Of a DNA stretch of 64,000 nucleotides, positions 12,326-32,551 are shown one piece after another (the first letter of the stretch is position 1; the number at the start of each line of letters is the position of its first letter). Below the pieces are notes generated by a model that was not told where the DNA came from, ran no database searches, and saw only the letters and a program-made list of their open reading frames with translations. The stretch spans positions 384,001-448,000 of the forward strand of contig CAWEXU010000030.1 in assembly GCA_963813075.1 (NCBI GenBank). The letters run 5' to 3'. The position numbers and the translations under genes were made by a program. This DNA is from Methanotrichaceae archaeon (GTDB lineage: Archaea > Halobacteriota > Methanosarcinia > Methanotrichales > Methanotrichaceae).

Positions 12326-12439
12326 AAATCTCGTAATTTTAGTAATCAAAGAAAATTTTGGAATTCCTTCCTTGGAGACGAGCGCTAATAAGGGCATGAT
12401 CAGTCGGTTTGCTCAGACTAGCCGGAGGTCAAGGATCTG

Positions 12440-12592
12440 ATGACTCCAGTGGTCGAGCCAGCAAAGGCTGACTCTGAGGCAGGTAAGGAGTTCATCGAAG
12501 GGATCCGAGAGGGCCTGGTGGACTTTGCTGAGGGCCGCTTTATGGTCTTCAAGGATGCAGATGAGCTATTGGCCTGTTTGTTGAGCCATTGA
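12440..12592 (+). CDS. Putative RelB-like antitoxin (50 aa), copy 2
   Basis: MTPVVEPAKADSEAGKEFIEGIREGLVDFAEGRFMVFKDADELLACLLSH; below the ORF-track cutoff; GGAGGT SD. Confidence 0.65.
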   Translation: MTPVVEPAKADSEAGKEFIEGIREGLVDFAEGRFMVFKDADELLACLLSH

Positions 12593-12654
12593 TATTTCCT
12601 ATTTTGCTCCCTCGGATCTTCTGTAAGTTTTATCGGTAATAGCTCTTCGAGGTT

Positions 12655-12728
12655 GGCTTTTGGGCATTCTTCTCCAGCTTGCCCGCAGGCGCGCGCGGGC
12701 GAGCGCTCGCATGCATGCGGGGCAGGCA
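12655..12728 (+). repeat. GC-rich palindromic repeat R, copy 3 (followed by G-rich tail to ~12815 and a degenerate 5' half at 12838-12870)
   Basis: GGCTTTTGGGCATTCTTC..TTGCCCGCAGGCGCGCGCGGGCGAGCGCTCGCATGCATGCGGGGCAGGCA. Confidence 0.85.
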
Positions 12729-12934
12729 CTGGGGGGCCGGGAGGGCGAATGGACGGGGAAGGGGGCTGGGCCTGGGATCTGTGGCCGGGCGGCAGTGGGA
12801 TGCGGGATGCAGGGGGTAGGAGCGCCAGTGCTCCTATGCCTTCGGGCCTTCCCAGGGTCGCAAGGGCATGAAGGAAATTAGCTCACAGATTCTCATCGAC
12901 AGTTTCATATACAAAAATTGTAAACATAAGTATC

Positions 12935-13562: not shown

Positions 13563-13743
13563 GAGGCAGAACTGCAGAGTTGCTTCTCTGCAAATTGTTC
13601 AAGGATGCCGGAGTCACCGCGGCCTTTGAACAGACCAAATCGTGAGCGGGCTGTGGAGCTAGCAACTCCTGGCACCCGGACTGCTCTATATTGAGGGGTG
13701 ACAGACGATGCGTGGGCGATTATCCTTCCATGCAGGCGCCTTT

Positions 13744-13782
13744 GCGCGCGCGGGCGGGCGCTCGCATGCACGCAGGGCTGCC
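13744..13782 (+). repeat. GC-rich palindromic repeat R, copy 4 (3' half clear, 5' half degenerate from ~13712)
   Basis: GCGCGCGCGGGCGGGCGCTCGCATGCACGCAGGGCTGCC. Confidence 0.85.
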
Positions 13783-13854
13783 TCGGGGGGGCAGGGCATC
13801 AATTCTAATTCAGAAGGACGTGAATACGACATTGTAGTAGGGCGAAATTCCGCT

Positions 13855-14067
13855 TTAATGCGATGGGCGTTCTTTCTTCGCCCGATCGAAGATCTCTTCA
13901 ATGCTCTGCCCTTCGTATAGCCTTCTGGAGATCTCGACATAGTCGGTGGGCTCACGGTGAAACATACCCAGAAACTTATGTGCTCTGGCCGGCCCAAGGG
14001 CTCGGTAGAGGGCGTCAAGGCCCCTTGCCCTTATCTCAGCGTCGTCCATTTCGCCTACTTCGGACAT
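13855..14067 (-). CDS. 70-aa protein resembling antitoxin-like partners of PIN toxins (orphan here)
   Basis: EIRARGLDALYRALGP..KFL..DY..SIEEI pattern; TTTTATA box and GAGGT SD upstream; partial second copy at ~19952-20156. Confidence 0.65.
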   Translation of the reverse strand: MSEVGEMDDAEIRARGLDALYRALGPARAHKFLGMFHREPTDYVEISRRLYEGQSIEEIFDRAKKERPSH

Positions 14068-15145: not shown

Positions 15146-15258
15146 AAATCTCGTAATTTTAGTAATCCAAGAAAATTTTGGAAATCCCTTCCTGGAGACG
15201 AGCGCTAATAGGGGCATAATCAGTCGGTTTGCTTAGACAACCGGAGGTCAAGGATCTG

Positions 15259-15411
15259 ATGTCATCTGTCGTCAAGCCAGCAAAAGTTGACTCTGAGGCA
15301 GTTAAGGAGTTCATCGAGGGCATCCGAGAGGGCCTGGAGGACTTTGCTGAGGGCCGCTGTGTGGTCTTCAAGGATGCCGATGAGCTATTGGCCTGTTTGT
15401 TGAGCCATTGA
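15259..15411 (+). CDS. Putative RelB-like antitoxin (50 aa), copy 3
   Basis: MSSVVKPAKVDSEAVKEFIEGIREGLEDFAEGRCVVFKDADELLACLLSH. Confidence 0.65.
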   Translation: MSSVVKPAKVDSEAVKEFIEGIREGLEDFAEGRCVVFKDADELLACLLSH

Positions 15412-15473
15412 TATTTCCTATTTTGCTCCCTCGGATCTTCTGTAAGGTCTATCGGTAATAGCTCTTCGAGGTT

Positions 15474-15551
15474 GGCTTTTGGGCATTCTCCTCCAGCTTG
15501 CCCGCATGGCTGTGCGCGCGGGCGGGCGCTCACATGCACGCGGGGCAGCCA
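15474..15551 (+). repeat. GC-rich palindromic repeat R, copy 5
   Basis: GGCTTTTGGGCATTCTCC..TTGCCCGCATGGCTGTGCGCGCGGGCGGGCGCTCACATGCACGCGGGGCAGCCA. Confidence 0.88.
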
Positions 15552-15752
15552 CTCAGAGAGTCGGGAGGGCGAAAGAGGGGGAGGAGAGCCATGTGGTCTG
15601 TGGCCGGGTGGCAGTGGGATGCGCAGATAGAGGGGGCGGTGCAGATGTGGGCGGAGGCTGGCGAGTTTGGCAATGGGATGGTACCTGAGCAGTTGCAGAC
15701 AGGGCATCGGTTTCGATTCGAGATTCCCAAATTCCATGCTTTCACCATAAAG

Positions 15753-16892
15753 CTAAACTACTGTCCTAATTTTCTCTATCGCCCAGTTAAATACGAGCAA
15801 GAACTTCTCCAGAGCCTCTCCATTCAGTGTCGATAATGGAATAGACGGGCCTTTGTCGACGGCGTCAATCGAAAGATTGATTCCTGGGATTTCATTTAAC
15901 CTATTGAGCAATTCTTTGCGCAAATCCTCGCTATCAAATGGCGGTTTAGTTTTGAGGTAATAGAAATAAGTCTCGATTCCTCCTGTTGTCCAGACTGCAA
16001 AAAGATAGTGCGATGCACCCTTGCTCTCTATAATAGGAGTAAAGGAGCCTCGTGTCTTACCATTGCCCCACCATATCCTATCTGTATTTTGCTTCGCCCA
16101 GGCGAGAATTTTTTTTGCCGATTCGATTCCATCGGAGTTAGATCTGGATGCAAGCTCCTGGAAAAATGATGGCTCATCCCATTTGCCAACATTAGAAAGA
16201 GATTTCCTTGCGTTTGCCACAGCAGTCTGGCCTATTACTCTCGGAACCAATGTTTTTGATTTTTCCCCACTATACTGTCTAACCTCTACAGCCAGAACCT
16301 CTGCCGGATTCATCTGTCCATTTAGGAATTCGACGATCTGTTGAAGCTCTTTTGGTATCTCATCTGCCACAAAGAGAAGCCTTATGTGGCCCGCCTGCAG
16401 ATTGATCTTAACCTGGCTCCAAAATTTGTCTACAGGATCTATGTCTTCTGGAGTTGCTTTGATCAGGCTTAAGATCATCTTATTTGGATCTTCTCCAGCT
16501 TCATTGGCCGAAGCTTCAAACACAGCACGGATCGACTCCACAGGCCAATGAGCGACGCAATTGGCTGCATAATCCAGCATCTGCCCGACAACCTTGCGTC
16601 TGGTGTCGTTATTATTGCTCTGCTTCACCTCGACTAATGTAGGTACTGCATCTTGGTCCAGGAATAAGTGATCCAGATACCATCTATCCGATCCGCCATC
16701 GTCTTCTGGCACCCCCATTTCCCTGGACACATGAAGCCATCGTCTGGGATTAGCTTCATCGATTTGATCCCCCGCCAGCAATTCAGGATGCTTTTCCAAG
16801 AGGGACTGAAGGATGTATTCACTCTTGTAGGGTTCCTTATCCATCGATTCAAGTCTGCCATCATCCGATAGTGAATATATTTTATCAGCCGT
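15753..16892 (-). CDS. NucS/restriction-endonuclease-like PD-(D/E)xK protein with C-terminal accessory domain
   Basis: E..LQ.LL, RE, LDHLFLDQD..LVEVK and VVGQMLDYAA motifs. Protein-like sequence begins at ACG-GCT-GAT (16892); start uncertain. Confidence 0.7.
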   Translation of the reverse strand, partial: TADKIYSLSDDGRLESMDKEPYKSEYILQSLLEKHPELLAGDQIDEANPRRWLHVSREMGVPEDDGGSDRWYLDHLFLDQDAVPTLVEVKQSNNNDTRRKVVGQMLDYAANCVAHWPVESIRAVFEASANEAGEDPNKMILSLIKATPEDIDPVDKFWSQVKINLQAGHIRLLFVADEIPKELQQIVEFLNGQMNPAEVLAVEVRQYSGEKSKTLVPRVIGQTAVANARKSLSNVGKWDEPSFFQELASRSNSDGIESAKKILAWAKQNTDRIWWGNGKTRGSFTPIIESKGASHYLFAVWTTGGIETYFYYLKTKPPFDSEDLRKELLNRLNEIPGINLSIDAVDKGPSIPLSTLNGEALEKFLLVFNWAIEKIRTVV

Positions 16893-17017
16893 GTCGCATC
16901 CCCGCCTGTATTGCCCGCAGCAATAAAAGGTTAGCTTGGCATTACTTGAATCTGTTGGGAGAGCCAATAGCTCCAACGTACTTACGCAAGTTATTCGCTC
17001 ATCTTACGAAGTGAGAC

Positions 17018-17137
17018 AGCGGCAGCCCACCCCAAAGGATGAGGTATGCTTCAGGCCGTGCTTCGGTTAGACGGAATCCAGAAACAATCGGGATCGTAGG
17101 TCCACTGGATTTAAAGACCAGATAAAATTGTGAATCT
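17018..17137. other. Structured non-coding element, copy A (homologous to reverse complement of 31759-31892)
   Basis: 29/38 ungapped identity in the core (17021-17058 vs 31886-31849) plus two further collinear stem-loops. Confidence 0.6.
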
Positions 17138-17354
17138 GTATCGTATTGCGAGGAGGACCTGTTAATAACCTTAAGAAAACATGAAAACAGGGCGAGGGTC
17201 GGTTTCCGCTACGGAATATTCCTGCAAATTTTTACAGCAAATCGTCACGCTACCGGAAAATTAGAGCGAAAGAGTAAAAACATTGATGTATTCGTTATGG
17301 GGACCATCAACTTTAAGTTAATCGGAATCCTCCTATGGGAATGGAGGGAATCGA

Positions 17355-17543
17355 GTGGAACGACAACATGTAATTTCCAGTAATATAAAATCAGTAGGAT
17401 ATGATCAAATTTCAAATATTTTAGAAATAGAGTTCGATAATGGGCGTACATATCAATATTTTGATGTGCCCAATCAAATTTATTTGTCCTTAATCGAAGC
17501 AGCTTCAAAAGGAGAATATTTTCATAATATTATAGAAATCTAG
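17355..17543 (+). CDS. KTSC domain protein
   Basis: SSNIKSVGYD..LEIEF.NG..YQY.DVP..Y..L..A.SKG.YF is the KTSC consensus. Confidence 0.92.
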   Translation: MERQHVISSNIKSVGYDQISNILEIEFDNGRTYQYFDVPNQIYLSLIEAASKGEYFHNIIEI

Positions 17544-17581
17544 ATTTGAATTCAAGCAATTCTTTAAAGGAGGATTGAGTA

Positions 17582-19587
17582 TTGATAATAGAATCTATTT
17601 ATATAAAAAATTACAGATCTGTTTTGGAAGAGACACTTTATTTCGATAATTTAACTGCACTAGTCGGCGCCAATGGCTCTGGAAAGTCTTCTTTCTTACA
17701 TGCCTTAGAGTTGTTCTATGGCCAATCGCCAAAAGTTGAGAGTGAAGATTTCTATAATGAGGATATAACAAAGGATATCATAATTGCCATAACATTCAAA
17801 GAGCTAAAAGAAGAAAAAGAAATATTTTCTAGATATATCCAAGATGATAGATTAAAGGTAGAACGGATCTTTGCTTGGAATAATGGAAAAGTAATAGCCA
17901 AATATCATGGATTTAGTCTCCAAAACCCTCGGTTCAAAGCATTGCGCGAAGCCTTTGAGATCAAGGATAGGGGCAAGAAAGCCAAAGAAGAATATGAATT
18001 CTTGCGTACAGATAGTGATTATATGGATCTGCCTCCTTGGTCATACTTAAAGACGGCTCAAGAGAATATAAAATCGTGGGAAGAAGAAAATCAAAAAAAA
18101 TGCGATCGCCATCGAGATGATGGCCAGTTCTTTGGATTTAATGAAGTCGGATTAGGTTATCTAGGAAAGTTTACTAAGTTCCTGTTTATCCCAGCTATAA
18201 GGGATGCATCTTCTGATTCGGTAGATGGAAAGGGTTCAGTAATTACGTATCTCATGGATTTAGTTGTCCGAAGTGTGTTGGCCCAAAAAGATGGTGTTAA
18301 AGAACTAAAAGAGGAAACACAAAGAAAATACCAAGAAATTATGGATCCGACTAAATTACCAGAGTTAAACCTATTAGCAGAGAGGATGACAGGAACCTTG
18401 AGAACTTTTGTTCCTGATGCCAAAGTGGAGCTCAAATGGCTTAGCTTAGAACAAATTGAAATACCTTCGCCAAAAGCGGAAGTTAAGTTAGTAGAAGACG
18501 GCTATCCTTCTGCCGTAGCAAGAACTGGACATGGCCTGCAGAGAGCATTCATTTTAACTATGCTGCAACATTTGGCACTGGCACAAACAGTCGAAAAGCA
18601 GTCCGAGACAGAAGCGAGTGAAGATAAATCTGAGATGGATAACAAATTACCCAATCTCGTTTTGGCCATAGAAGAGCCTGAGCTTTATCAGCATCCTAAT
18701 AGACAGCGACATTTTGCTAAGATATTAATGCAATTATCTTGCATGAAGATTCCAGGAGTAGCCGAAAGGACTCAAATTATATATGGAACTCATTCTCCAT
18801 TATTCGTAGGGATTGACCGGATTGAACAAATTAGGCTACTGAGAAAAATAGGCATTGCAGATGATAGGCCCAAAATTTCAAAGATATTTAGTACCGACTT
18901 AGACGAAGTAGGTAGAAGAGTTTCGGAGATAGAAGGTAAGCCAACAGCCGAAATGTATACGAAGCAGACGACATTGCCTCGGCTTAAGACCATCATGACT
19001 CCATGGATGAATGAAGGTTTTTTTGCAGATGTTGCGATCCTGGTCGAAGGAGAAGATGACCGAGCAGCCATATTAGGTATAGCCAAAGCAAAGGGCTATG
19101 ATCTTGAAGGTAATGGTTTCTCAGTGATTCCTTGCGGCGGCAAGACAAATATTAGTAGACCATATATTATTTTTAATAATTTAAATATTCCACTATATAT
19201 AATTTGGGATGGAGATTTCGGTAAAGGGGAAACGCAAGGCATATGCAAAGAATGTGGACGTCCACTGGACAAAAAGCCAGATCCAAAGGAAAACCATAAG
19301 CTTCTCAGATTAATGGGTAAGAAAGAAGAGGATTGGCCTGAATATATAGAAGAGAATTTTGCCAGCTTTAAAACAGAATTGGAGAGCACCTTGGAAGACT
19401 GAAATTGGTCATGAAGTTTTTGAGAAATGTCTCGGAAGATGCCAAGTTGAATTTTGTATTGCAAAACGAAAGCATGCAATAAAGATATCCAAGTGTAATC
19501 ACGACGATTTTGAAATATGCTAAAGATGAAGGCAACACCAGTAAGTCTCTGGATGAAATATTGGATAGGATCATGGCATTGAAATAG
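17582..19587 (+). CDS. OLD-family ATP-dependent nuclease (ABC ATPase + TOPRIM), frameshifts near 19398 and 19485
   Basis: IKNYRS, GANGSGKS, GHGLQR, IEEPELYQHP, THSP, LVEGEDD and WDGD motifs; C-terminus continues in other frames to TAG at 19587. Confidence 0.88.
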
Positions 19588-19951
19588 ATTAAAGGAACAG
19601 GATGCTAAGCTTGCAGGTATTCAGTTGAGGGATAGCTATATAGATGAGTGATCAAGACCTGCTATCTTCAGAAGGCTTTTATGAGTTGTGGATCGGATCG
19701 TAGCATCCCTCTAGCTAAGAGAGTAACAAGGCCCTGAAGATCCTGGATCGCATAGAGCTTAGCTACTAAAGCAAATAACATGAGTTCCTCTGCGGTCAAG
19801 CTATCCAAGTAAGGCAAGCGTATACCTTTAAGAACTCCATAGCTTTATGAAGACTCTTAACTTGATGGGAGGATATTCCTTATGAAAGAGTTGGCGAGCT
19901 ATGAAGGAGGCCACGAGGATGGGTGTTGAGATGAAAGAAGATTTTTATGTT

Positions 19952-20156
19952 GGCGTCATTTCCTAATTCAGAAGGACTTGAATATGGCATTGCAGGAGGG
20001 CGAAATCCCGCTTCAATGCGATGTGCGTCTTTCTTCGCCCGATCAAAGATCTCTTCAATGCTCTGCTCTTCGTATATCCTTCTGGAGATCTCGACATAGT
20101 CGGCAGGCTCACGGTGAAACATAATCAGAAATTTATGGGCTCTGTTGGACCGGGGC
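19952..20156 (-). pseudogene. 5'-truncated copy of the 70-aa ORF cassette (13795-14000)
   Basis: RAHKFL.MFHREP.DYVEISRR.YE.QSIEEIFDRAKK plus shared downstream non-coding sequence. Confidence 0.8.
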
Positions 20157-20192
20157 ACGGAAATCTCGTGTAATTTCAATCTTTTTAAAATA

Positions 20193-20532
20193 TTAGTATT
20201 CTATGATTTCCTCACCATAAAAATTTTTTCGCACATCCATATGTGTCTTAAATATTTGACATGAATTCTTTATTTCTTGCTCTATTGCAAGGATCCGGTT
20301 AATTAATTCATTCTCAAAGATACAACCTATCATTAGCATTTCCATAGTTATGTTTTGTTCGTGCTTTTCATCTATTTGTATTGAAGACAATATCGATCTT
20401 TTTTAATTTATATTTATTCATTAATTCGGTTTCTTCTTCGGTTAATTCCGCTCTTGCAGACAACGAATACAATATTTGTCTTTTCCACAGAATATTACTT
20501 TCAGATTGATTCTTTATAAGAGATAGCTTCAT
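20193..20532 (-). CDS. Small hypothetical protein, split by a frameshift near 20385
   Basis: Two overlapping AT-rich ORFs that read as one ~110-aa protein ending FYGEEIIEY. Confidence 0.55.
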
Positions 20533-20608
20533 GCGATCCTCTCTGTATATTTTCATTTTATTTTATATAATATTGGTTCCTCAGATTCCAGCCGGGTGTA
20601 AAGGAGAG

Positions 20609-22260
20609 CTATTCTTCAGGCATGATGATTTTAGCCTTGACTCCTACTTGGTCAAGCAAGTAGAGCAGCCCGCCACCATCAATTAGTTCAAGAGGCTTAT
20701 CCTTTGCGAATTCATATGCATCAGGACCGTACCCGCTGGTTGTCACAATAATACCCTTGCTCGCCCCTTCATTCATCATTGTGCCATATAGATCACGCAC
20801 TGCAGAAACACCCACGGTATTTTTATATCTCTTGGCTTGAATTACCACTTTGCCGCCAAGGATAGGGCGAATGTCAAATGCTACTGCATCTACTCCACCA
20901 TCTTTTGATGCGCGGGTCAGCTTACTCTCTAGCCCCATCTTACCAAATAGATTACTTGTCAGATTTTCAAATTCACCGTAGGTTAAATCCATCAGGTTTG
21001 GCCTTGAATCAATGCCGCTTAAAACATCACCTTGTTCGATAAAGCGCTTATCAACCATATCAAATTCGACAACAGGCTTTACAGGCAATTGCTCATCAGG
21101 ACGAGATGACACCTGTGCACCAAGATTACGTAGACATACCAGCTTATCAATCCGACTTAGATTTAATTCATTAAAGCTATCTTTCGTTGTTCTTACAGAA
21201 ATTAAGCAGGGGTGAGCGTCTTTTCCAGTTGCTGGATCAGTCGTTGTGACAAAACCGTTAAACGTGACAACCTGGATGTGATTGCCTTGATCAGCTTCCA
21301 AAATTTCATGGATGGTACGAATGGTAATTGCAGCTACAATATCTTGATACAATGCTTTCATTTCGCTTGGCTTTCTGGCTTTTCCACAACATCGTCTTTT
21401 GATTTGTTGTATTTGTATTCTGCTACATTAGGGATAACATCGATCCACGGTAACTCGTATTCGACTACCATCTCTTTTGATTCCGGCGCATAAGCCAGTC
21501 GGAAACTCTTTGTAAATCCTTCAGGGTATTCAGAGCGTTCAAGTACCATTGTCGTATAGGTCTTTATGGCAGATGGATCTCCAGATTTATATGCAGCCTC
21601 TAGCTCACTTACTTCTTGATCGCGTTGCTGCACCTTTCTCAAAAATGCTTCGTGATTGCTATCGTATTCTGTTTTTAATTGCTCAAGTTTAGACTTCTTC
21701 TCGCATTCAAGTGCGTCATATGCTTTGACTGCATTATCATATTCAGCTTCTGCTGCTTGAGTTTCACGCTGATGTCGGCCTTTCATGCCCAAAGCGTTTT
21801 CAAGGAATCCCATTGATTTAACATTCTTCAAATAATCTTGCTTATCTGGGCGAGGAACTACCATTATTAATTCTTGCGGCGGTGTAAAAGGCGGAAATTC
21901 GTCTTTCACTCTCAAGGAGTCGAATTCAATAGTATCATCAATGTCGAGTGTATGTTCTAAGATTTTGCTTAGCTCTAAAATATAATTAGCATTTGCTTCA
22001 TTTTTCTCTTCAGTTTCTTCGATTCGGCCAGCAACATATTGCTGCTTAGCTTCTTTCTCCAGTTGCTTTCTTTCCTTCTCTGATTGGGCCATCTGGCGTC
22101 TTGCCGCTATCTCAGCTTGTTTCCTTTGCCGTTCTGCTGCCTTGAGCTGAGCTGCTTGTGCTTTTAATAGTCTTTTGCGATTGGTTTCTGCTTCACGACT
22201 AGCCCGAGCCGCCTCACGAGCAACGGCTTTCATCCAATTTGAGGTGAAACTTTTAGCCAT
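20609..22260 (-). CDS. mrr: Mrr-like restriction endonuclease with N-terminal coiled coil, split by a frameshift near 21380
   Basis: C-terminal Mrr_cat motifs EFE, DGGVD, IQAKRY, VRDLYG, IVTTS and LIDG. Adding one C restores KPRKPSEMKALY. Confidence 0.85.
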
Positions 22261-22485
22261 AACTATAGCCCATCCGTCAGTCTATATGAGTTTCTGAGCA
22301 TATCAACGGATTTTCCTCTACGAAATGATGGTGAGATCTATCACACGAAAAAGCTTTCGATATAAATATGAGAATTTTCTCGTATTAACGCTCGCGAGCA
22401 AGACACAACATCTCACATAATTTGACTACTACTTGTGGGGCCGGCTAAAAATATCTAGACTCACCATTCATTCAATAAATAGTCT

Positions 22486-22857
22486 TTATGGAGCTCCAAT
22501 TGGGACTCCTACTATCTGTTCAAATGAAGCCGCGAAGATGATAAATCCTATAATTGTTGTTATGGCCCCCATAGCAGATACCGTGTAATAGATTATGCTC
22601 AAGTAACCTCTCCTATTCTCGCGTTTCCAGTGGTCATTAATGAAAGTAATCCCAAACATAATGAATAATCCAGCAACGACTCTCGCCTCAGGCCCGAGAT
22701 CTCTTACCTGCGACATGATTCCTATCCAGAAAATAGTGATCCATGCCAAAACTATCATTATTAGCTTAAATACTTCAATAACTGCAGTTACAGATTGTGA
22801 AGGAGCTTTGCTCGAATCCGGATCAGAAGATTCTTCCACGATATTCTCATTTGACAT
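22486..22857 (-). CDS. Hypothetical membrane protein (3 TM)
   Basis: Three hydrophobic segments; starts immediately after the tRNA 3' end. Confidence 0.55.
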   Translation of the reverse strand: MSNENIVEESSDPDSSKAPSQSVTAVIEVFKLIMIVLAWITIFWIGIMSQVRDLGPEARVVAGLFIMFGITFINDHWKRENRRGYLSIIYYTVSAMGAITTIIGFIIFAASFEQIVGVPIGAP

Positions 22858-22872
22858 GTCTTATAATATCTA

Positions 22873-22955
22873 TGCGGGGGACGGGAGTCGAACCCGCGAA
22901 CACCTTCGTGACAGGGTCCTAAGCCCTGCGCCTTTAACCACTTGGCAACCCCCGC
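22873..22955 (-). tRNA. tRNA-Leu (TAG)
   Basis: GCGGGGG acceptor stem, D-loop TGG, CAGGG-CTTAGGA-CCCTG anticodon arm, long variable arm, GGTTCGACTCC T-arm, discriminator A, no encoded CCA. Confidence 0.97.
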
Positions 22956-23197
22956 GCTTGCTATCGACTTTCTGATAATCTCGCCCTTGGTAGTACGGGA
23001 CTTGGCCTTCATTGCTTCGCGGTGGATAAAAACATATCGAAGCCAATGGATTATGGGGCTCTTCGCTATAATTGCGCGGGTAGTGTACTGCAGAAAATAT
23101 TCCTTTGTGCCTTCGTGCCTTTGTGGTGAGGCCTGAGCATCCCGATTTCACCCGAGACAAATAGGCACAAAGAAAAGAAAATAGGGCTCAACGCTAT

Positions 23198-23657
23198 CTA
23201 TCCTTCTGCGATCCCTTCAGGCCCGCCGCCCTTGCGCGCCCTCCTGGCCGCCGCTATCAGCTCTCTCATCTCCCCGGGGGAGAGATCGTGCCTGTGCTTC
23301 TGATCATCCCACTCCCGCCGGAAGGGATAAAAGTACTCATAAAGCTCCAGAATATCCCGGGACCAGAGAACCAATACCCTCTTCTATCACTGCCATCTTG
23401 ATATGCAGCGGCAGGATCTCGAAGATTCTCAGGTCGTACTTCTCGGAACGAAGATGGGAGACGAACTCCCTCCACAGCCCTGCCCTATCCTCTGCCTCCG
23501 GGGCCACCAGGCAGAGGTCTATGTCGCTATCCGGCCCGGCATCGCCCCGCGCCCAGGAGCCGTAGAGCAGCACTCCTAAAACCCTCTTCTCCCAGGAGGG
23601 CTCTGCCAGAAACTGCAGCTCTTTTCCTAGCCGTTCGCTAACGACCTCTCCAGCCAT
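23198..23657 (-). CDS. Minimal nucleotidyltransferase (MNT) antitoxin, +1 frameshift near 23372
   Basis: LYGSWARG..DSDIDL; corrected frame continues LELYEYFYPFRREWDDQKHR. Confidence 0.85.
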
Positions 23658-24067
23658 CCCTCCACCTCCTCTCCGAAGGCGACAATCCCGCCCTCCAGAT
23701 CCTTCATGCTCTGCATGGCTACAAGATCGTCTCTCCGATTGTACCTGTGGACCAGATGGTTGCGAAGGCCATTGGCCTCGATGAGAACCTCTCGGGACTG
23801 GGCGGAAAGAGCAGCGAGCCTTTCCAGGTTGCTGTAATCATCCTGAGATGTTATGCCCAGATCCTTGCACATCATCGCCACCAGATCCAGGCTGGCCTCT
23901 ACTGCCTCCTGAAAGGCTTTGTAGACTGCGAGCTTGGTCTTGTCGTCCTCTAAAAAATCGTCCTCGGAGACCTCCGCCAGCCACTCCTGCACCTGTCCCG
24001 CTCTCTTAAAAACCATATCCAGCTTATCTTTGTACCGGCAGGCTCTTTTTGCAGTGATGTGGATCAT
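23627..24067 (-). CDS. HEPN (DUF86/HepT-like) RNase toxin
   Basis: GLRNHLVHRY Rx4HxY motif; overlaps the MNT gene. Confidence 0.9.
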   Translation of the reverse strand: MIHITAKRACRYKDKLDMVFKRAGQVQEWLAEVSEDDFLEDDKTKLAVYKAFQEAVEASLDLVAMMCKDLGITSQDDYSNLERLAALSAQSREVLIEANGLRNHLVHRYNRRDDLVAMQSMKDLEGGIVAFGEEVEGWLERSLANG

Positions 24068-24075
24068 GGAACACC

Positions 24076-25000
24076 TCACTTCTCGCACTGCTTCTCTCCC
24101 ATCAGCCAGGCCATCACTGCTTTGCTGGTGTGCATCCGGTTCTCCGCCTCATCGAATACCCGGGACCTGGGCCCGTCCATCACCTCATCGGTGATCTCCT
24201 GCCCCCGGTGGGCGGGCAGACAGTGCAGGGCAATAGCCCCCTCCGCCGCAGCGGCCATGAGTTCGGAGTTGATCTGATACCGTCCGAATACCCGCAGGCG
24301 CTCCGCCTCCTCCGCCTCATCCCCCATGGAGACCCAGGTGTCGGTGACCAAAACGTCCGCACCTCCGGCCGCCTCCTCCGGCTCCTCGACCACCCGCGGG
24401 CTTCCCCCCAGGGCGCGGGCCTCTTCCAGTATCGCAGGCCTGGGCTGGTACCCTGGCGGGGAGGCCACAGTGATCTCCATCCCCAGGATGGCCGAGGCCA
24501 GGATCAGGGAGTTGCAGACGTTGTTCCCATCCCCAACCCAGCCGATCCGCAGGCCATCCAGAGCCTGAAAGTTCTGGCGAATGGTCTGCAGGTCCGCCAA
24601 TATCTGCAGCGGATGCTCCCAGTCGGAGAGGGCATTGACTACGGGACACGGACGCATGCTCCGCCAGCTGGAGCACAGTGCCGTGAGAGTGGACCCGGGC
24701 GGTGATGCCATGCACATATCGGGAGAGAACTCGGGCCGTATCGGCAATGGTCTCCCCCCGGCCCAGCTGCAATTCGTTTGCCGATAGGTATAGCGGATGG
24801 CCGCCCAGCTCCCAGGCTGCCACCTCCAGGCTGACCCGGGTCCTGGTGGAGGGCTTCTCGAAGATCATGGCCAGGCTCTTTCCCTCCAGCGGCTGGCCGT
24901 GCTGGCCGCGCCTGGCCCGGAAGGCCTCAGCGCTCTGGATCAGCTGCAGAATATCCTCTCGGGAGAGGTCGGCTATGGAGATGAGATTCATGCTCTGCAC
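24076..25000 (-). CDS. argF: Ornithine carbamoyltransferase, +1 frameshift near 24647
   Basis: FEKPSTRTR, HPLQILAD, GDGNNV, TDTWVSMG, HCLP and AENR motifs across two frames. Confidence 0.95.
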
Positions 25001-25007
25001 CTCACTC

Positions 25008-25395
25008 TTACTCTTTTATCCTCTGCACAATCTCGGACAGTGCAGTCACATTATCCTGAGAGGGTGTGACCGTGGCTGATATACCTTTGAACCCCAGGGC
25101 ACCGTGCCTGCACGGCTCGTCGTCCTCCAGCTGATGGGACCACGGGCTTTCGATCATGAACGCCACGCCCGGATGAGCCTTATCCCCAGACGCCCTGGCC
25201 ACGAGCACCAACTTGCCTCATCTCATTCTCCACGGAAACCCGCGCCCCGTCCTTCACCCCCAGATTTGCCAGGTCCTCCTTGTCCATGAGGATCTGGGCG
25301 CTGAGCTGAAGGCACTCATCGGAGTGCATCCCTTTCCTTTCCGCCTCATACTGGAAGATATCCTCGTAGGTGGCGATCTTAACTTCCACTGCCAT
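25008..25395 (-). CDS. fwdD: Formylmethanofuran dehydrogenase subunit D-like protein, frameshift near 25219
   Basis: Molybdopterin dinucleotide-binding pattern (DL..LGVKDG..V.V..G..F..SPW..GFKG); follows fwdB. Confidence 0.75.
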
Positions 25396-26646
25396 TTACA
25401 TCGCCTCCATAATCCTGGTCAGAATCTGCTCTTCTGCCAGCCTTTCCGTCTTCATAAATGGCTCTAAGCTCACCTTCATCCCGTCCGTTCGGATGGCCGT
25501 CCCCCCGGCCTCCAGGCCGGAGATGGCGGACGGTATGACCACTAAAGCAGCATCGGAGGTGATAGACCGGCACGAATCTATGGCGATGATGGGCACCTTG
25601 GCCAGAGCCCTGGCCACGCCCACGGGCAGCTCTGCCAGCGGGTCAGAGCCTAAGGCCAGGAGGGCATCAGCCCTCTTCGCCGCCCCGGCGAGGGTGTCCT
25701 CCGAGCGGTGAAGAACCTCCCCTTTGTCATGCTGAAATGACACCCCCTTAACATATCCCGTCCGGTCAAGCAATAGCTGGTTGAACCCGCGGGTGTTGAA
25801 CCCTCCTGCCACTGGAATGGCCTTGAAGGTGGTGACCTCATTCAGCCGGGCCATTAAATCAGAGAATAGCTCCATCTTGCCCTGCAGGGACTGGAGCATA
25901 CTCCTGCCGGGGAAGATCACCCCGTACTCAGTCTTCTTAAGAATGCTCCCCAGCTCGATCATCTTCTTCTTGTCCCCGAACTTGGGAATCTTCCCCTCCA
26001 GCACATTCAGCATCGCCTCCAAAAACTGGAGATCCTCACCCGGACCGATCCGGTAGGTGGTGTCGGGACAGAGTTTGGCAGTGGGAGATTCCCTCACATC
26101 CACCACGATGCAGGTCCTCTCCTCCTCGTAGCTCTTCTGCCTCTTCTCGCCCCTGGGGAAATAGGAGAACCGGGACAGATGGCGGGGCTGGCTGCTGGAG
26201 GGGTCTGAACCCCAGAATATGGACGTGTCGGCATAGTTGCGCACGTCGTCTAAAGTGCAGCTGGGAACCTTTCCCGCCAGGACCATTTCCATGAAGATGC
26301 CCTCGCAATAGGTTGAGGGATCATCAACAGCAGCGCCAATCCTCTCCGCCAGATCCATTCCCGCCGCCTGAGCCTCGGAAGAGGAGTTTGACCAGCCGTA
26401 AATCAGGGGTGACTTGGCATCCTTCAAAATCTCTGCCGCTCGGGCGATGGCCTGGTCCAGGGAGACATCCCGGCCCTCGATCATGGGCTTAGTCCTTTCG
26501 GCAAATAGGCTCTGGTAATGGGCCTGCCCCTTTCGGCAGATGTTTCTTGCCTGGGGGACAGCTTCCTTATCCGGGTAAAGGATATCCTCGCAGATGAGCG
26601 CGCAGCCTGTGCAGCTCTTGTAGTTGTAGTCGGTCATACAAATCAC
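25396..26646 (-). CDS. fwdB: Formylmethanofuran dehydrogenase subunit B
   Basis: CTGCALICEDI, PLIYGWS, CTLDDVRN.AD..FWGSDP..PRHLSR and GTAIRTDG motifs. Confidence 0.92.
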   Translation of the reverse strand: MICMTDYNYKSCTGCALICEDILYPDKEAVPQARNICRKGQAHYQSLFAERTKPMIEGRDVSLDQAIARAAEILKDAKSPLIYGWSNSSSEAQAAGMDLAERIGAAVDDPSTYCEGIFMEMVLAGKVPSCTLDDVRNYADTSIFWGSDPSSSQPRHLSRFSYFPRGEKRQKSYEEERTCIVVDVRESPTAKLCPDTTYRIGPGEDLQFLEAMLNVLEGKIPKFGDKKKMIELGSILKKTEYGVIFPGRSMLQSLQGKMELFSDLMARLNEVTTFKAIPVAGGFNTRGFNQLLLDRTGYVKGVSFQHDKGEVLHRSEDTLAGAAKRADALLALGSDPLAELPVGVARALAKVPIIAIDSCRSITSDAALVVIPSAISGLEAGGTAIRTDGMKVSLEPFMKTERLAEEQILTRIMEAM

Positions 26647-26647
26647 C

Positions 26648-27109
26648 TCAGACGAACTCTATGGCCTTGCTCGGGCAGGTGGCAGTACAGGCATTGCAGA
26701 GAATTTTATTGGGCCCGAATCGGCGGCACTCCTCAAGATTGAAGGCCTTCACCACGCCATCCTCCACCCGCAAGATGACCTTCTCGCTCTCCGGACCGAG
26801 GCCCGCGCCGCACCTGGTGGGCTCAGCCGCCACATTGACCGGACAGGCGATAACGCAGTTGCCGCAGCCAAAACACTTCTCCGGATGAATGACCAGGCCG
26901 GTATCCGAGGCGCTCTCCAGCGGAGCCACAATCTCCCTCAGCTTGGCGAGCTTGGCCTCGTACTTCTTCTCTTCAATTAGTGGAGTGCACTCATCCAGCT
27001 TCTTCTCCCGGCCCAGAAGGCCCACGGCAAAAGCCATGCAGGTGGGAAGCCCGCACTTCTTGCAGTTGGTCTTGGGCAATAGCATATAAAGTTCCATGGC
27101 GCTGACCAT
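26648..27109 (-). CDS. fwdG: FwdG-like 4Fe-4S ferredoxin with N-terminal FeS domain
   Basis: LPKTNCKKCG..TCMAFA..C; CFGCGNCVIACP; C..CNACTATCP. Confidence 0.8.
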   Translation of the reverse strand: MVSAMELYMLLPKTNCKKCGLPTCMAFAVGLLGREKKLDECTPLIEEKKYEAKLAKLREIVAPLESASDTGLVIHPEKCFGCGNCVIACPVNVAAEPTRCGAGLGPESEKVILRVEDGVVKAFNLEECRRFGPNKILCNACTATCPSKAIEFV

Positions 27110-27213
27110 AACCAGATACCTCAGTTTGGGATGGATACAATAGTTGCCTCAATCTCGATCATATTTATTGCCTGCGCAAAGCTTTTCATACTTCTTCAGG
27201 AATTGTCTTTTCA

Positions 27214-28956
27214 ATGCCCTTCAGCAACCCCACCGCCCTCCTGGGCCTCCTCGGAATAATACCTCTGGTGATAATCTACCTCATCCGGCCCCGGCCAAAG
27301 GAGGTCCGCTTCTCTTCCACCCTGTTTTTGCGTGAGGGGGAGGCGAAGCGCACCGCTGTGCTCAGCCGTCTGATAAGCGATCCCCTCTTCTGGGTGCAGC
27401 TTTTGGCCCTGTGCTCTCTCTCCCTGGCTGCCGCCGGGCCCTACATCGAAGAGCAGGGACCGGCAAGCAGCCACCTGGTGGTGGTTCTGGACGGCTCGGC
27501 CAGCATGCAGGCCTCATTTTCCGCTGCCCTGAATCTCATCGATCCAAACCTGGACCGCTATGAGAAAATCAGCATCATCCTGGCCAAGAACATGCCTGAA
27601 ACGGTCCTGGTCGAGGGCAGCCAGGCTGAGGCCCGCGATCTTCTATCGCAGCTTGAGCCGGCCGCAGTCTCCGCCGACCTCTCCAGCGCATTGACCCAGG
27701 CTGGCATACTCCTGGGCGGCAGCGGGGGAGATATCCTGCTGGCCTCGGACTTCGCCAGCTGGACGGGAGACGACCCCGATGTCACCCGCAGGCTCATCGA
27801 GGCCAGCGGCCGGGTGGGAATAGTCTTTGCCGACTCATACCAGGGAAAAGAGAACATCGCCCTGACCGAGGGCTGGAATGTGCCGGGAACGGGATACGTC
27901 AATCACACCGCTCTGGTCCACAACTACGGCCCGGCAAAGACGGTGCCCATCACCATCACCGGTCCGGGAGGCACTACCCGCCAGGCGGCCCAGATCCCTC
28001 AGGGCGGCGATTACTACCTATCCTTCACTGCTTATCCCGGAGTGAATCAGATCTCATTGGAGCTGGAGGACGCCATCTCCTGGGACAACCAGGCCTATGT
28101 ATATGTCCCCAGCCTGGCGAAGAAGAATGTCCTTTATCTGGGCGAGCCAGGGCCAGCGCTAAAAGCCCTCCAGTCCCTGCCCAATGTGGATGTGATGACC
28201 TCGGGCAGATACTCGGACTTCGATCTGATCGTCCTGGCAAAGAATGCCTCCGTGGACGGCGAGCTGAACCGCTACATCGACGGGGGCAGGGTGATCTATA
28301 TCTCTTCGGAGCTGAGCAATCCGGAGTACCTTCCGGCCAGGGTGACGGGAAAGCTATCCGGCCCGGCCAGCCTGTGGGTTAGAAATCCTGGGTTCGCTGA
28401 AGGCCTGCACTTCGATGAGATCGGAATTTATGCTTACCCGGAAGCTGCTCCTCGCCGGGGCTCCACCACCATAGTGGAGGCCAATGGGGTCCCCATCCTC
28501 TCCTACTGGCGGCTGGGCGAGGGAATTGTGGTCTATAACGGCCTGGAGATGGACTCGGACTTCTATCTGCGCCCCGAGTACCCCATATTCTGGTATCAGA
28601 TGGTCAACTGGATGACCGGAGTCCCCGATATTGAGGACTCCAACCGGAAGACCGGCGAAGTCATCGCTTTGGGTGAGCAGGGCCCCATCCAGGCCCCCGG
28701 AGGGAACCTCTTCGCCAGCACCGTAAGCTTAGACCAGGTGGGAGTCTATCGCTTCCTGGGTCGGGCAGTGGCGGCGAACATGTACAACCCCACCGAGTCC
28801 TCCCTTTTCCGCAGCCGGGACTTTGAGGGGGGAGAGTTTTTGGGAGAGGTCGGCAATGCCACCGTAAAGAAGGACCTATCCCTCTGGGTGATAGCCCTGG
28901 CCGCCCTGGCCATCATCCTGGAGCTTTTAATCATGCGCTGGAGGAGAGAGACATGA
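27214..28956 (+). CDS. BatA-type N-terminal double-TM + vWA domain protein
   Basis: F.NP.AL..P..IIYLIRP..FSS..FL, VVLDGSASM MIDAS, C-terminal TM. Confidence 0.85.
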   Translation: MPFSNPTALLGLLGIIPLVIIYLIRPRPKEVRFSSTLFLREGEAKRTAVLSRLISDPLFWVQLLALCSLSLAAAGPYIEEQGPASSHLVVVLDGSASMQASFSAALNLIDPNLDRYEKISIILAKNMPETVLVEGSQAEARDLLSQLEPAAVSADLSSALTQAGILLGGSGGDILLASDFASWTGDDPDVTRRLIEASGRVGIVFADSYQGKENIALTEGWNVPGTGYVNHTALVHNYGPAKTVPITITGPGGTTRQAAQIPQGGDYYLSFTAYPGVNQISLELEDAISWDNQAYVYVPSLAKKNVLYLGEPGPALKALQSLPNVDVMTSGRYSDFDLIVLAKNASVDGELNRYIDGGRVIYISSELSNPEYLPARVTGKLSGPASLWVRNPGFAEGLHFDEIGIYAYPEAAPRRGSTTIVEANGVPILSYWRLGEGIVVYNGLEMDSDFYLRPEYPIFWYQMVNWMTGVPDIEDSNRKTGEVIALGEQGPIQAPGGNLFASTVSLDQVGVYRFLGRAVAANMYNPTESSLFRSRDFEGGEFLGEVGNATVKKDLSLWVIALAALAIILELLIMRWRRET

Positions 28957-31313
28957 TTCAGGATCTTTATTTTGCCCGGCCGGAGCTTCTCTGGGCCCTG
29001 CCACCATTAGCCGTGCTGGGGCTGGTCTACATCCACCTCCGGGCCAAAAACAAGATATTAGCCCTCTCCAGGCTGCTGATATTCTGCCTGATACTGGCCG
29101 CGGCGGCCAATCCATACTTTGTCCAGACCCAGGTCGTCCAGTCGCAAAAGCCGAGCATCACCGTCCTGGACGATAAGACCGGCTCGATGGCGGTATTCGA
29201 TCCAGATGTGGCGGCCAGAGTTGCCGATCTGACAAGCGCCTCCATCCGCTCCTTCTCCGGCGACTCGACCCCTCTGGGGGACAGGATCCTCCAGCATGCT
29301 CTTCCCGGGAGCACCATCCTCCTGGTGACGGACGGCTACAGCAATAGCGGCCGATCGCTGGCGGACGCCCTGGCCCTGGCCAGAGCCTCCAATACCACGG
29401 TCTTCGCCCTCTCCTTCGATCCGGCCAGAGCAGATGCAGGTGTAGAGATATCCGGTGCCAACACCGCCGTTTTGGGAGGGGACTATCCTTTCCGGGTGAT
29501 GGTCAGGACCTCTCTGAACTACAGCGGCCCCTTATCCGTCTATGCTGATGAGAAGCAGATCTACAGCGACCAGATCCTGGCCAATGGGAGCGATTCCATC
29601 AAGATCTCTCACTCCTTCCTGGAGACGGGAAACCATATCCTGCGAGCGGAGATCGCCCCGGATATGCAGCCTATAAACGATGTCTATCTGAAGTCGATAT
29701 ATGTCGTTCCAAAGCCTGAGGTTCTCTTCCTCTCCCCGGCCGACTCCCCCCTTGCCCAGAACGCGAGAGAGCTCTACAAATTGACTGCGGTCTCCGAGCT
29801 CCCCTCCGATCTGCGGGGCTACAAGTCCATAATCATTGATGATGCTCAATATAGCGCAAGCCTCGACCGGCTGGAGGATTATGTGCGCGAGGGAGGTGGC
29901 CTGGTGGTGGTGGGGGGCAAGGATTCCTTTGATCTGGGAGAATACCGCAACTCCACTCTGGAGAAGTTCCTTCCAGTGCAGTCCTTCCCCAGTCGTTTTG
30001 AGGGGGGCAAGACCCTCATATTCGTCCTGGACATCTCCTTCAGCCTGCTTTCTACCCAAACCAAAGACGGCACCACATTGCTCGACTATGAAAAAGCCCT
30101 GGCAGTGGAGCTACTGAAGTCCCCGCAGTTCCAGGACTATAACGTGGGACTGGTGGTCTTTGGCACCCGGGCCTACAATGTGATCGATCCCGTTCCCCTC
30201 TCCCGGAGCCAGACCGTCCTCGCAGACAGGATCACCACTCTCGCCCCCACGGGAACGGAAAACAGCTACCTGGACTCGGGACTGGAGCTGGCGCATGATA
30301 TGATCCAGGCAAGCGGAGGCGAGGGGGAGATGATCGTCCTTTCGGACGGAAACCTGCAGAACTATGAGGAGGTGGTGGCCCGATCCAAAGAACTGATCCG
30401 GGAGATGAACATCACCACCAGGCTGATTCAGGTCCAGGCCTTCCCCGGCATGACCGGGAGCTTCCCGGATATCGCCAGCAACACTGGCTCTGAGTTCACC
30501 GCTTTTGTCTATCCTGACTCTCTGACCACCATCAGTGCCCCTCTATCTGAGGAGCCCAGCCTGCCGGAGAAAAACCTCTCCACCTATGCCCTGGCCGTGG
30601 TCAATAAGAATCACTATATCACCGCCGACTTGGAGATGAACGCCACTATTACCGGCTTTAATGATGCCACACCCAAACCAGGCTCTTTGAAGCTGGTGGC
30701 ACTGGCCGATGGCAAGCCCGTTCTCACTGTATGGCGCTACGGCCTGGGCAGGGTTGCCGCCCTCACCACGGACAACGGCAACGCCTGGGCCGGTCAGCTC
30801 TACAGCAGTCCCAGCTCTCAGTTGATCTCCTCCGCAGTCAACTGGGCGGTGGGAGACCCCCGGCCGGAGACGGACAGAGTGGAGGCAGAGGATGGCTGGC
30901 AGGACAGCCCCCTGCAGATCACCATTGCCAGCACCTCCCGGCCCAGCCTCCCGGAGGCAGAGGTGGAGAAGATCGGAGACAACAGATACCTGGCGACATT
31001 CACTCCCAACAGCACTGGCATCTATTATATTGGAGATTATGGTGTGGCGGTGAACTATCCTCTGGAGTACAGATATATCGGATTCAATCCGGAGCTTTCG
31101 GGGCTAATCATGGCCAATGGGGGCAAGGTCTTCACTGAGGAGGAGGCGGCAAGGAGTCTGATAGCGGAAGCGGCCCGGACCAGCCAGAGAACTGTGCAGG
31201 AGAGGACATCCAGAAGAGATGCTCTGCTACTTTTTGCTCTCTTGATATTCCTGCTGGAGATAGTATCAAGAAAGATCAATGAGATACGCCGGCAGGGGCG
31301 GACCAAGCGCTGA
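28953..31313 (+). CDS. vWA domain + class I glutamine-amidotransferase-like membrane protein
   Basis: Two vWA-like segments (LDDKTGSM/VTDG; VLDISFS/LSDG), YVREGGGLVVVGG and WRYGLGRVAA. Confidence 0.8.
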   Translation: MIQDLYFARPELLWALPPLAVLGLVYIHLRAKNKILALSRLLIFCLILAAAANPYFVQTQVVQSQKPSITVLDDKTGSMAVFDPDVAARVADLTSASIRSFSGDSTPLGDRILQHALPGSTILLVTDGYSNSGRSLADALALARASNTTVFALSFDPARADAGVEISGANTAVLGGDYPFRVMVRTSLNYSGPLSVYADEKQIYSDQILANGSDSIKISHSFLETGNHILRAEIAPDMQPINDVYLKSIYVVPKPEVLFLSPADSPLAQNARELYKLTAVSELPSDLRGYKSIIIDDAQYSASLDRLEDYVREGGGLVVVGGKDSFDLGEYRNSTLEKFLPVQSFPSRFEGGKTLIFVLDISFSLLSTQTKDGTTLLDYEKALAVELLKSPQFQDYNVGLVVFGTRAYNVIDPVPLSRSQTVLADRITTLAPTGTENSYLDSGLELAHDMIQASGGEGEMIVLSDGNLQNYEEVVARSKELIREMNITTRLIQVQAFPGMTGSFPDIASNTGSEFTAFVYPDSLTTISAPLSEEPSLPEKNLSTYALAVVNKNHYITADLEMNATITGFNDATPKPGSLKLVALADGKPVLTVWRYGLGRVAALTTDNGNAWAGQLYSSPSSQLISSAVNWAVGDPRPETDRVEAEDGWQDSPLQITIASTSRPSLPEAEVEKIGDNRYLATFTPNSTGIYYIGDYGVAVNYPLEYRYIGFNPELSGLIMANGGKVFTEEEAARSLIAEAARTSQRTVQERTSRRDALLLFALLIFLLEIVSRKINEIRRQGRTKR

Positions 31314-31383
31314 TCCTCACCATCAGATTTTAATAGCATAATCCGCTTTATTCAGGTACATTTATGGAGGTAACTGTCACCAA

Positions 31384-31692
31384 ATGAGTTCTCAAATGTG
31401 TGCCGTCTGCGGCCTTCCCCAGGAGCTATGCATCTGCGAGGAGGTTGCCAAGGAGCAGCAAAGGATTGTAGTCAAAGTCCAAAAGCGCAGGTATGGTAAA
31501 GAGGTGACAGTTATTCAGGGCATTGATCCCCATGAGATCGATCTCCAAGAGCTGTGCACCCATCTGAAGTCCAAGCTGGCCTGCGGCGGGACGGTAAAGG
31601 ACAACCTGATCGAGCTTCAGGGCAACCATATCCAGAGGATAAAGGATATCCTGGTCAAGAAGGGATTCGGCGCAGATCAGATAAGCACCTGA
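31384..31692 (+). CDS. sui1: Translation initiation factor aIF-1 / SUI1
   Basis: [28 protein letters not shown] and IELQG motifs. Confidence 0.96.
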
Positions 31693-31747
31693 ATTTCATT
31701 ATCTTATTTTTATCGATCTGCAGCGAGATCCTGGTTGCTTATTGCAT

Positions 31748-31892
31748 CGGGAGCGTGAAGGGTCACGAATACCCCAACATCTAAGTTGGGGCTGAAGTGA
31801 ACCCTCTCCCGGTTTTCGTATTTCCATAAAACCGAGCGTGAGGGCGTGCGGCCCGAATTATACCCTATCCTTTGGGTGGGGTGGCCACACGC
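31748..31892. ncRNA. Highly structured intergenic element, copy B (candidate ncRNA or IS200/IS605-end-derived element)
   Basis: Nested stems GCGTGCGGCC/GGCCACACGC, ACCCTATCC/GGGTGGGGT, CGGTTTT/AAAACCG, AGGGTCAC/GTGAACCCT and CCCCAAC/GTTGGGG; homologous to 17018-17137. Confidence 0.5.
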
Positions 31893-31917
31893 AGTTTGAT
31901 TTCTCTTTGCGTTATTA

Positions 31918-32316
31918 TTATGAGTGCGAGCCCAATGCCTGCCTGCCCTCGTCTCCTCGAATGGTCTCAGAAGGAGTCTCCTCTTCAGAGCTCATCACAA
32001 TGGAGAATATCCACTCGCTGAGGCTGGCGCAGTGCTCGGGGATGCACTCCTCGATGCAACCTGCACAGGGCTCGAAGGCATCCACAGCCATAAGGGGATC
32101 GAAACGTCTGCCGCCGGGCCTGCTTACGCAAAAAAGCCTATACGTCCTGATACCGTCGACCGATTCCACCTCTCTGGTGATAAAGCGATCTTTGAGGAGC
32201 TTGGCCACAATGCGGGAGCATTTGCGTGAATCGATCTTCAGAGCTTTCCACAGGTCGCTTTGCAAAGCTCCCTCAGGATGCGATTTAATATAATCTAATG
32301 CTTCCTCGACAGACAT
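31918..32316 (-). CDS. Winged-HTH protein with C-terminal Cys cluster (RPC34/TFE-beta-like)
   Basis: G.LQSDLWK.L.IDSRKCSRI..L wHTH; PCAGC...C.P..C..L..W motif. Confidence 0.75.
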   Translation of the reverse strand: MSVEEALDYIKSHPEGALQSDLWKALKIDSRKCSRIVAKLLKDRFITREVESVDGIRTYRLFCVSRPGGRRFDPLMAVDAFEPCAGCIEECIPEHCASLSEWIFSIVMSSEEETPSETIRGDEGRQALGSHS

Positions 32317-32326
32317 CCCTTACCTC

Positions 32327-32551
32327 TCACTCAACCGGGCTGATTAGAATGATGTTATTGCCTCGCAGGATAACCGATCCCAAAGAGCGAGTCTTCTCGC
32401 CACCGATCAACTCCACGGTCTCCAGCAGATGGAGGTTCAAGTATTCGTCCACGCTGTTGAGAACACCTTCCAGGACATACCGCGGTGATCCCTTCATCTC
32501 CACCTGAATCTTGCTTCCTACCAGACTCTGTACCTTCTTAGTTGGGAACAT
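32327..32551 (-). CDS. Sm-like (Lsm/SmAP) protein
   Basis: Sm1 (EGVL.SVDEYLNLHL) and Sm2 (VILRGNNI) motifs. Confidence 0.95.
   Translation of the reverse strand: MFPTKKVQSLVGSKIQVEMKGSPRYVLEGVLNSVDEYLNLHLLETVELIGGEKTRSLGSVILRGNNIILISPVE

Follow-up and report, generated by a model that had tools for sequence, protein, structure and literature searches.

Two structured non-coding segments in a Methanotrichaceae genome are probably transposase-less relics of an IS200-type element family

Two related non-coding segments and their surroundings

The window (the whole stretch analysed, 64,000 nt of a Methanotrichaceae contig) carries two related non-coding segments, designated copy A and copy B. 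Copy A is flanked on one side by the gene for a 407-aa protein and on the other by a gene pair for a KTSC protein and an OLD-like ATPase/TOPRIM protein. The 407-aa protein (window 15753-16976, minus strand) matched neither Pfam nor NCBIfam families; by eye, it contains a D-x(n)-E-x-K stretch of nuclease type. Next to a tRNA-Leu gene (22873-22955), the only gene found by ARAGORN in the window, positions 17355-22260 hold the KTSC gene, the gene for the OLD-like ATPase/TOPRIM protein (606 aa, with its end at 19402) and a pair of Mrr-type nuclease genes. A repeat of the tRNA-Leu 3′ end, as an att site marking the far border of the island, was not found within the window. Among the repeat-bearing frames of the island (12418-12729, 13686-14018 and 15159-15737), two have a long, almost identical sequence in common, and in L092 a relative of 15159-15737, the third frame, adjoins an IS5 end. 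Copy B has sui1 on its left and a convergent gene on its right. The features of both loci are as follows.

17019..17199, minus: copy A, read as a decayed fragment of a ~250-bp sister PATE (profile and alignment to L083)
17026-17044, minus: right-end hairpin of A, core common with B
17045-17048, minus: guide GR of A, CATA
17198..17256, plus: repeat abutting the break of A, likely an IS end remnant (in L090 downstream of a DDE-type transposase gene)
17256..17332, plus: remnant of an IS5-family end (found behind the IS5 transposase genes of L092 and L094)
31384..31692, plus: sui1, left neighbour of B (Pfam SUI1)
31739..31742, plus: tetranucleotide TTAT serving as target and left cleavage site, part of the host DNA and retained in empty alleles (guide-target covariation)
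31743..31900, plus: copy B, read as a complete non-autonomous IS200-group element (PATE) of 158 bp (profile, empty site, tnpA-flanking ends)
31759..31805, plus: left end of B, outer stem 31759-31766 with 31797-31805
31768-31771, plus: left guide GL of B, AATA, inside the outer stem
31772-31791, plus: left subterminal hairpin of B, putative TnpA-binding site by analogy with IS608
31811..31833, plus: deletion junction of B, previously described as 'stem 2' (profile comparison)
31844..31900, plus: right end of B, outer stem 31844-31853 with 31883-31892
31859-31862, plus: right guide GR of B, TATA (family consensus CATA)
31863-31881, plus: right subterminal hairpin of B
31897-31900, plus: predicted right cleavage site of B, TGAT (guide rule and end conservation)
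31918..32316, minus: convergent right neighbour of B (the winged-helix families MarR_2 and B-block of Pfam matched weakly, below cut-off)
32327-32551: Lsm gene preceding the convergent neighbour of B (Pfam LSM)

Relationship and architecture of copies A and B

An earlier sequence-only reading had noticed two similar 38-mers, and these were present as described (A from 17021 on the plus strand, B from 31886 on the minus strand; 29 of 38 positions identical without gaps); the boundaries it gave to the two segments were too short compared with those listed above. A profile built from 10 relatives, with A and B left out, found A (E = 1.8e-21) and found B as two halves (E = 3.7e-17 and 5.4e-21), which confirmed the homology.

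Copy B joins profile positions 2-81 to positions 178-264 and fits the definition of a PATE given in PMC3119063, namely a non-coding element with two intact ends and an internal deletion. As expected of the IS200 group, subterminal imperfect hairpins are present at both ends on the same strand, and there are no terminal inverted repeats. The interior of B beside its left end is of the short-element type, so an origin from a ~260-bp element is likely; sequence comparison suggests that a ~260-bp PATE probably lost a further ~100 bp at a microhomology of 2-3 nt. The changes private to B comprise GR (CATA to TATA) and alterations in both hairpins, and because several changes are found only in B, it may have lost mobility.

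Copy A spans profile positions 17-202, with its top strand on the minus strand of the window, and shares 82% identity with the 251-bp element L083 across 17019-17199. Its right-end hairpin and GR are kept, but the right end stops ~12 nt short of its terminus and hardly any of the left end remains. Copy A is a piece of a PATE, not a complete one. Its break at 17199 adjoins two other IS-end repeats, which places A within IS debris. The IS5 transposase assignment in L092 and L094 was clear (NF033581, 208 bits against a cut-off of 140), and all family matches of the DDE-type transposase in L090 were below cut-off. The repeat at 17198-17256 recurs in the same genome at C30:383728-383783 and 463905-463961. 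Copy A is likely immobile.

In the sequence-only reading, the core of both segments was followed by a shared 'stem 2' and a shared third stem. By profile position, the first half of stem 2 is indeed homologous and the rest is not: the third stem of B is the left end of the element, a part missing from A beyond its break at 17199, while the third stem of A is variable middle that was deleted in B. The later stems therefore equate unlike parts of the element, namely the middle of A with the junction and left end of B. Beyond the core, the two copies aligned somewhat better than shuffled sequences (4 of 500 scored as high), a surplus that comes, at least in part, from the shared first half of stem 2.

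The parent family encodes only a Y1 transposase

BLASTN of copy B against its own genome matched two halves, which recur on contig C4 about 570 and about 1,400 bp apart. The first pair (C4:312405-313122, L026, 717 bp) encloses a 150-aa protein that was identified as a Y1 transposase (Pfam Y1_Tnp, PF01797, 7.9e-38; NF033573 IS200/IS605 transposase, 141.7 bits against a cut-off of 55). The proposal that copies might abut tnpA thus held, the same ends flanking a Y1 transposase gene; for tnpB, four queries from the same genome found no match between family ends in the stretches searched. The second pair (C4:322100-323673) encloses a 418-aa frame, presumably an inserted ISL3-type transposase, with no tnpA match there. 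L026 is the only tnpA-bearing family copy in the assembly. The C-terminal tail of its product differs after the catalytic tyrosine from those of L003 and L027 by an apparent frameshift, and its guide and target (GATT and TAAA) satisfy the pairing rule described below at two of three positions only; given the shifted tail and the partial guide fit, the C4 copy is at best a possible supplier of TnpA. The genome assembly is 83% complete and gave 7 TnpA matches and 14 TnpB zinc-finger matches.

BLAST with B matched all 24 genomes of the same genus and none of the 16 genomes from two other families. A pattern scan extended the family to Methanosarcina and further Methanotrichaceae (116 loci of an estimated ~340 stretches), and a metagenome set was collected with the right-end pattern (120 loci of ~960). 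The 126 distinct complete elements were mostly short, with 68 at 240-275 bp, 14 at 200 bp or less and 22 others up to 500 bp; 20 were of tnpA size (650-760 bp) and 2 exceeded 760 bp. TnpA matches were obtained in 29 of 117 left-anchored stretches and in 12 right-anchored stretches. In searches of the literature on IS200 in Methanothrix, Methanosaeta concilii and Methanosarcina (titles) or on T-rich IS200 targets, the family was not found, and a catalogue or supplement may name it; the main text of a 2026 survey of archaeal ISs (PMC13343696) mentions neither these genera nor PATEs.

Several family members were found in other contexts. Complete tnpA-bearing copies (L156 and L161) lie on contigs filed as bacterial MAGs (Omnitrophica and Syntrophorhabdus), which could reflect misbinning or cross-domain transfer. 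One IMG/VR viral contig has the family right end at both contig ends (L338 and L339), with a 312-bp copy in L339. L258 is a 68-bp terminal-only form that lost its core between two similar hairpins. Ten copies of this form (L220, L233, L272, L273, L278, L280, L285, L302, L303 and L304; 188-190 bp) have their hairpin loop interrupted by an inverted-repeat element of ~120 bp, which in most copies is bordered left and right by TTTA; this resembles the small repeats that attack the palindromes of Haloquadratum PATEs (PMC3119063).

Copy B occupies a site that is empty in relatives

The genus was searched with the right-hand neighbour of B, which matched in 56 of 59 genomes, and the best 30 loci, one of which was the window itself, were used for comparison. 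The family profile had no match in any of the 29 loci from relatives around this gene; sui1 and the neighbour gene stand together in 10 of them. Syntenic conservation of B, which the sequence-only reading had proposed to examine, was thus absent, and copy B is a lineage-specific insertion. In the closest empty alleles, TTAT is followed by the T-run that is found after B, with no duplication; the tetranucleotide is therefore retained in the empty site, and the left flank is conserved across copies. The right flank of the empty alleles differs from the B locus by a 1-2 nt indel, and since empty alleles are available for this one site, the exact cut was placed by the guide rule and end conservation. 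A systematic empty-site search with 81 elements gave two pairs, both at the site of B, and a search for an empty site of the C4 copy gave none (0 of 58).

Guide-target covariation defines the targets and the active strand

In IS608, the cleavage sites pair with four-base guides located 5′ of each hairpin (TTAC with AAAG, TCAA with GAAT), and the target remains in the left flank (PMC5934647, PMC3201880). For the pairing register, two pairs are named in PMC3201880 and the third was deduced from the IS608 sequences in PMC5934647. On the tnpA-sense strand of the present family, the cleavage sites match GL and GR in the same way (AATA-TTAT, AATT-TTAA and CATA-TGAT). Left-end guides were scored in 108 of the 117 stretches, nine having been dropped because they lacked guide context or were too short. 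The guide AATA was found with TTAT in 74 of 88 copies, the other 14 lacking an exact TTAT, and AATT was found with TTAA in 16 of 17. A guide ending in A never occurred with a target ending in A, nor a guide ending in T with a target ending in T. The independent metagenome set, with 47 scored, gave 32 AATA-TTAT, 8 AATT-TTAA and 7 other combinations, among them AATA-TTAA and GATA-TTAA, once each. Of 64 right ends, 55 combined CATA with terminal TGAT. Both guide types were present within single named assemblies, and on a tree of 40 short elements from which the guide base had been removed, the guide label changed five times, at least three of these changes being forced by strong branches. The two bases after the right end were T in 59/64 and 55/64 elements, and in 108/119 each in the metagenome set, against a background of 31%; a preference at the +1 base is known for IS608 and ISDra2 (PMC5934647).

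Because the 4-nt left guide tracks the target, this covariation fixes the active strand. The minus strand of B was also considered as the top strand and was rejected, as the empty site retains TTAT and guides lie 5′ of the hairpins solely on the tnpA-sense strand. The sequence-only reading had found the outer stems and the inner hairpin to favour opposite strands. The G-U pair that favoured the minus strand of B proved private to B, with G-C at that position of the outer stem in 84 of 87 relatives; the T-G pair of the inner hairpin on the opposite strand is a conserved feature (77 of 87).

By analogy with IS608, a TnpA made elsewhere would bind the top strand at both inner hairpins, base pairing would join GL to the target and GR to the cleavage site on the right, and a single-stranded circle would be excised ('peel-and-paste') and inserted 3′ of TTAT behind sui1. 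Past transposition of B is likely on this analogy; cleavage and a circle junction are predictions. A right-left joint of a PATE, as in a circle, was not seen in the contigs examined, which are uninformative on excision.

Covariation is confined to the terminal helices

A structural alignment was made from 40 of 68 short elements after dereplication at 93%. The four terminal helices were 97.5% paired, and 9 of 35 pairs had changed on both sides; none of 500 shuffles reached this covariation, a control that is inflated by relatedness. RNAalifold predicted no pair in columns 67-246 of the 40-element alignment. Part of the middle of the family still translates as the C-terminal tail of TnpA (L005 compared with L027). 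An absence of covariation had been named beforehand as grounds for discarding the structural claim, and covariation was found, in the terminal helices only. It is confined to the sites where single-stranded DNA hairpins for TnpA are expected; covariation by itself does not separate DNA hairpins from RNA helices.

Comparison with known systems

The elements resemble the PATEs of Haloquadratum walsbyi, as described in PMC3119063, in that they have no terminal inverted repeats, carry near-terminal palindromes that are alike at both ends, make no target duplication and are too short to code; in both cases they derive from core deletion, of IS605-type elements in H. walsbyi, and terminal-only forms exist. 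They differ in host, being found in Methanotrichaceae and Methanosarcina, in having a tnpA-only parent, and in the GC-rich outer stem that encloses every hairpin. Features in common with IS608 (PMC3201880, PMC5934647) are a TnpA of the Y1 HUH type, imperfect subterminal hairpins whose tips are T-rich, a 4-nt guide on the 5′ side of each hairpin matching the cleavage site, integration 3′ of a tetranucleotide and a base preference directly after the cut. The differences from IS608 (PMC3201880, PMC5934647) are the targets (TTAT or TTAA compared with TTAC), the right end (TGAT compared with TCAA), the preference after the cut (TT at ~90% compared with C at +1), the distance of the left cut from the hairpin foot (29 compared with 19 nt), the start of the right cut site after the hairpin foot (15 compared with 10 nt) and the lack of tnpB. 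Gene-less PATE-like elements with IS200/IS605 ends and predicted mobilisation in trans have also been described in Geobacillus stearothermophilus (PMC10055086); those derive from tnpB or iscB elements and can retain omega-RNA, whereas no TnpB was found here and no scaffold is conserved upstream of the right-end stems.

Interpretation and alternative explanations

From these observations, we consider it very probable that copy B consists of the left and right ends of a TnpA-only IS200-group element joined without the interior, likely moved in trans, and that copy A is a likely dead fragment of a sister miniature. Both are likely transposase-less relics of IS200-type mobile DNA rather than a new RNA gene. 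Of the options raised by the sequence-only reading, stand-alone IS200/IS605-type ends proved apt, B being a complete fused left and right end and A a truncated relative. The non-coding RNA and the omega-RNA or guide-scaffold options were not sustained, as B is non-syntenic, the middle has no consensus pairs and the TnpB search found none between the ends.

Three other explanations were weighed. Copy B could have been kept for a host role, as a terminator, stabiliser or insulator where the transcripts of sui1 and the Lsm operon converge, since it has strong hairpins and stands 50 nt behind sui1 in the T-rich gap of convergent genes. The location is explained by the preference of the family for T right after the insertion point, B is absent from all 29 relatives' loci examined, and it is decaying privately; a host role is accordingly very improbable. 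Transcription data came from 24 runs as assembled contigs only, in which gaps are no evidence of silence. RNA contigs of runs X1-X3 cover the genes flanking B, and among the matches listed none covers 31721-31862; one X3 contig extends 38 nt into the right end of B, and the contigs stop at differing places. Copy A had no RNA contig from runs X1, X3 and X4, with the same reservation about gaps.

The second explanation holds that the PATE also supplies a stand-alone omega-RNA, with scaffold and flanking guide, to a TnpB made elsewhere. As PATEs are said to often encode omega-RNAs (Meers et al., PMC10055086), it was taken seriously. The genome has the TnpB zinc-finger matches noted above; three tnpB elements follow a TTAT target and have a right-end hairpin identical to the family consensus; and B lies in the direction of sui1, so that read-through would copy its top strand. 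Yet TnpB, searched with four queries from the same genome, was found neither in the 117 left-anchored stretches nor, among the 120 anchored at the right end, in those of 150 nt or more; contig ends cut many of the stretches of both sets. Only the 27-nt transposase-binding hairpin is common to the family and seven TnpB right ends in the genome, and the middle has no consensus structure and is partly readable as the TnpA C-terminal tail. Moreover, B deleted most of this middle and A has no 3′ terminus. An upstream partner for the 3′-terminal bases, forming a pseudoknot, is a feature of omega-RNAs. Counting Watson-Crick pairs only, this partner had 3 bp in B, 3-6 bp in TnpB controls and 3-8 bp in relatives, a count that does not tell the groups apart. 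An omega-RNA function of the PATE is highly unlikely, and we would give equally little credence to a read-through RNA from sui1 acting, from the top strand of B, as a minimal guide or decoy for TnpB in trans. The family hairpin is carried by tnpB-only elements at C5:27467-27485, C9:2523-2541, C30:382543-382561 and C30:284501-284520 of the same genome; three of these elements follow TTAT and may share the TnpA of the family.

The least credible explanation, an unannotated cellular family of structured non-coding RNA with two diverged copies, can draw on stable predicted folds, covarying helices and the lack of an Rfam match to A or B (the window at gathering thresholds gave only tRNA-Leu, and both loci, L001 and L082, gave no match at E ≤ 1), but it is largely refuted by the empty sites and tnpA-bearing copies, since B is lineage-specific, copies lie at unrelated sites with a fixed target motif, the structural match of A and B beyond the core is mostly misalignment, and the helices coincide exactly with the tnpA-flanking transposon ends.

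Significance

The reading of A and B as relics of IS200-type DNA removes a false non-coding RNA candidate; its significance is modest. For an abundant IS200-group family of acetoclastic methanogens, miniatures included, the results establish where the ends lie, which strand is active and which targets are used. The family also has a strong TT preference after the cut, which, like its retargeting, would surprise specialists little. Retargeting by a change of guide was shown through engineering for IS608. The present family is a natural case of repeated retargeting via a single guide base, from TTAT to TTAA, with about five switches.
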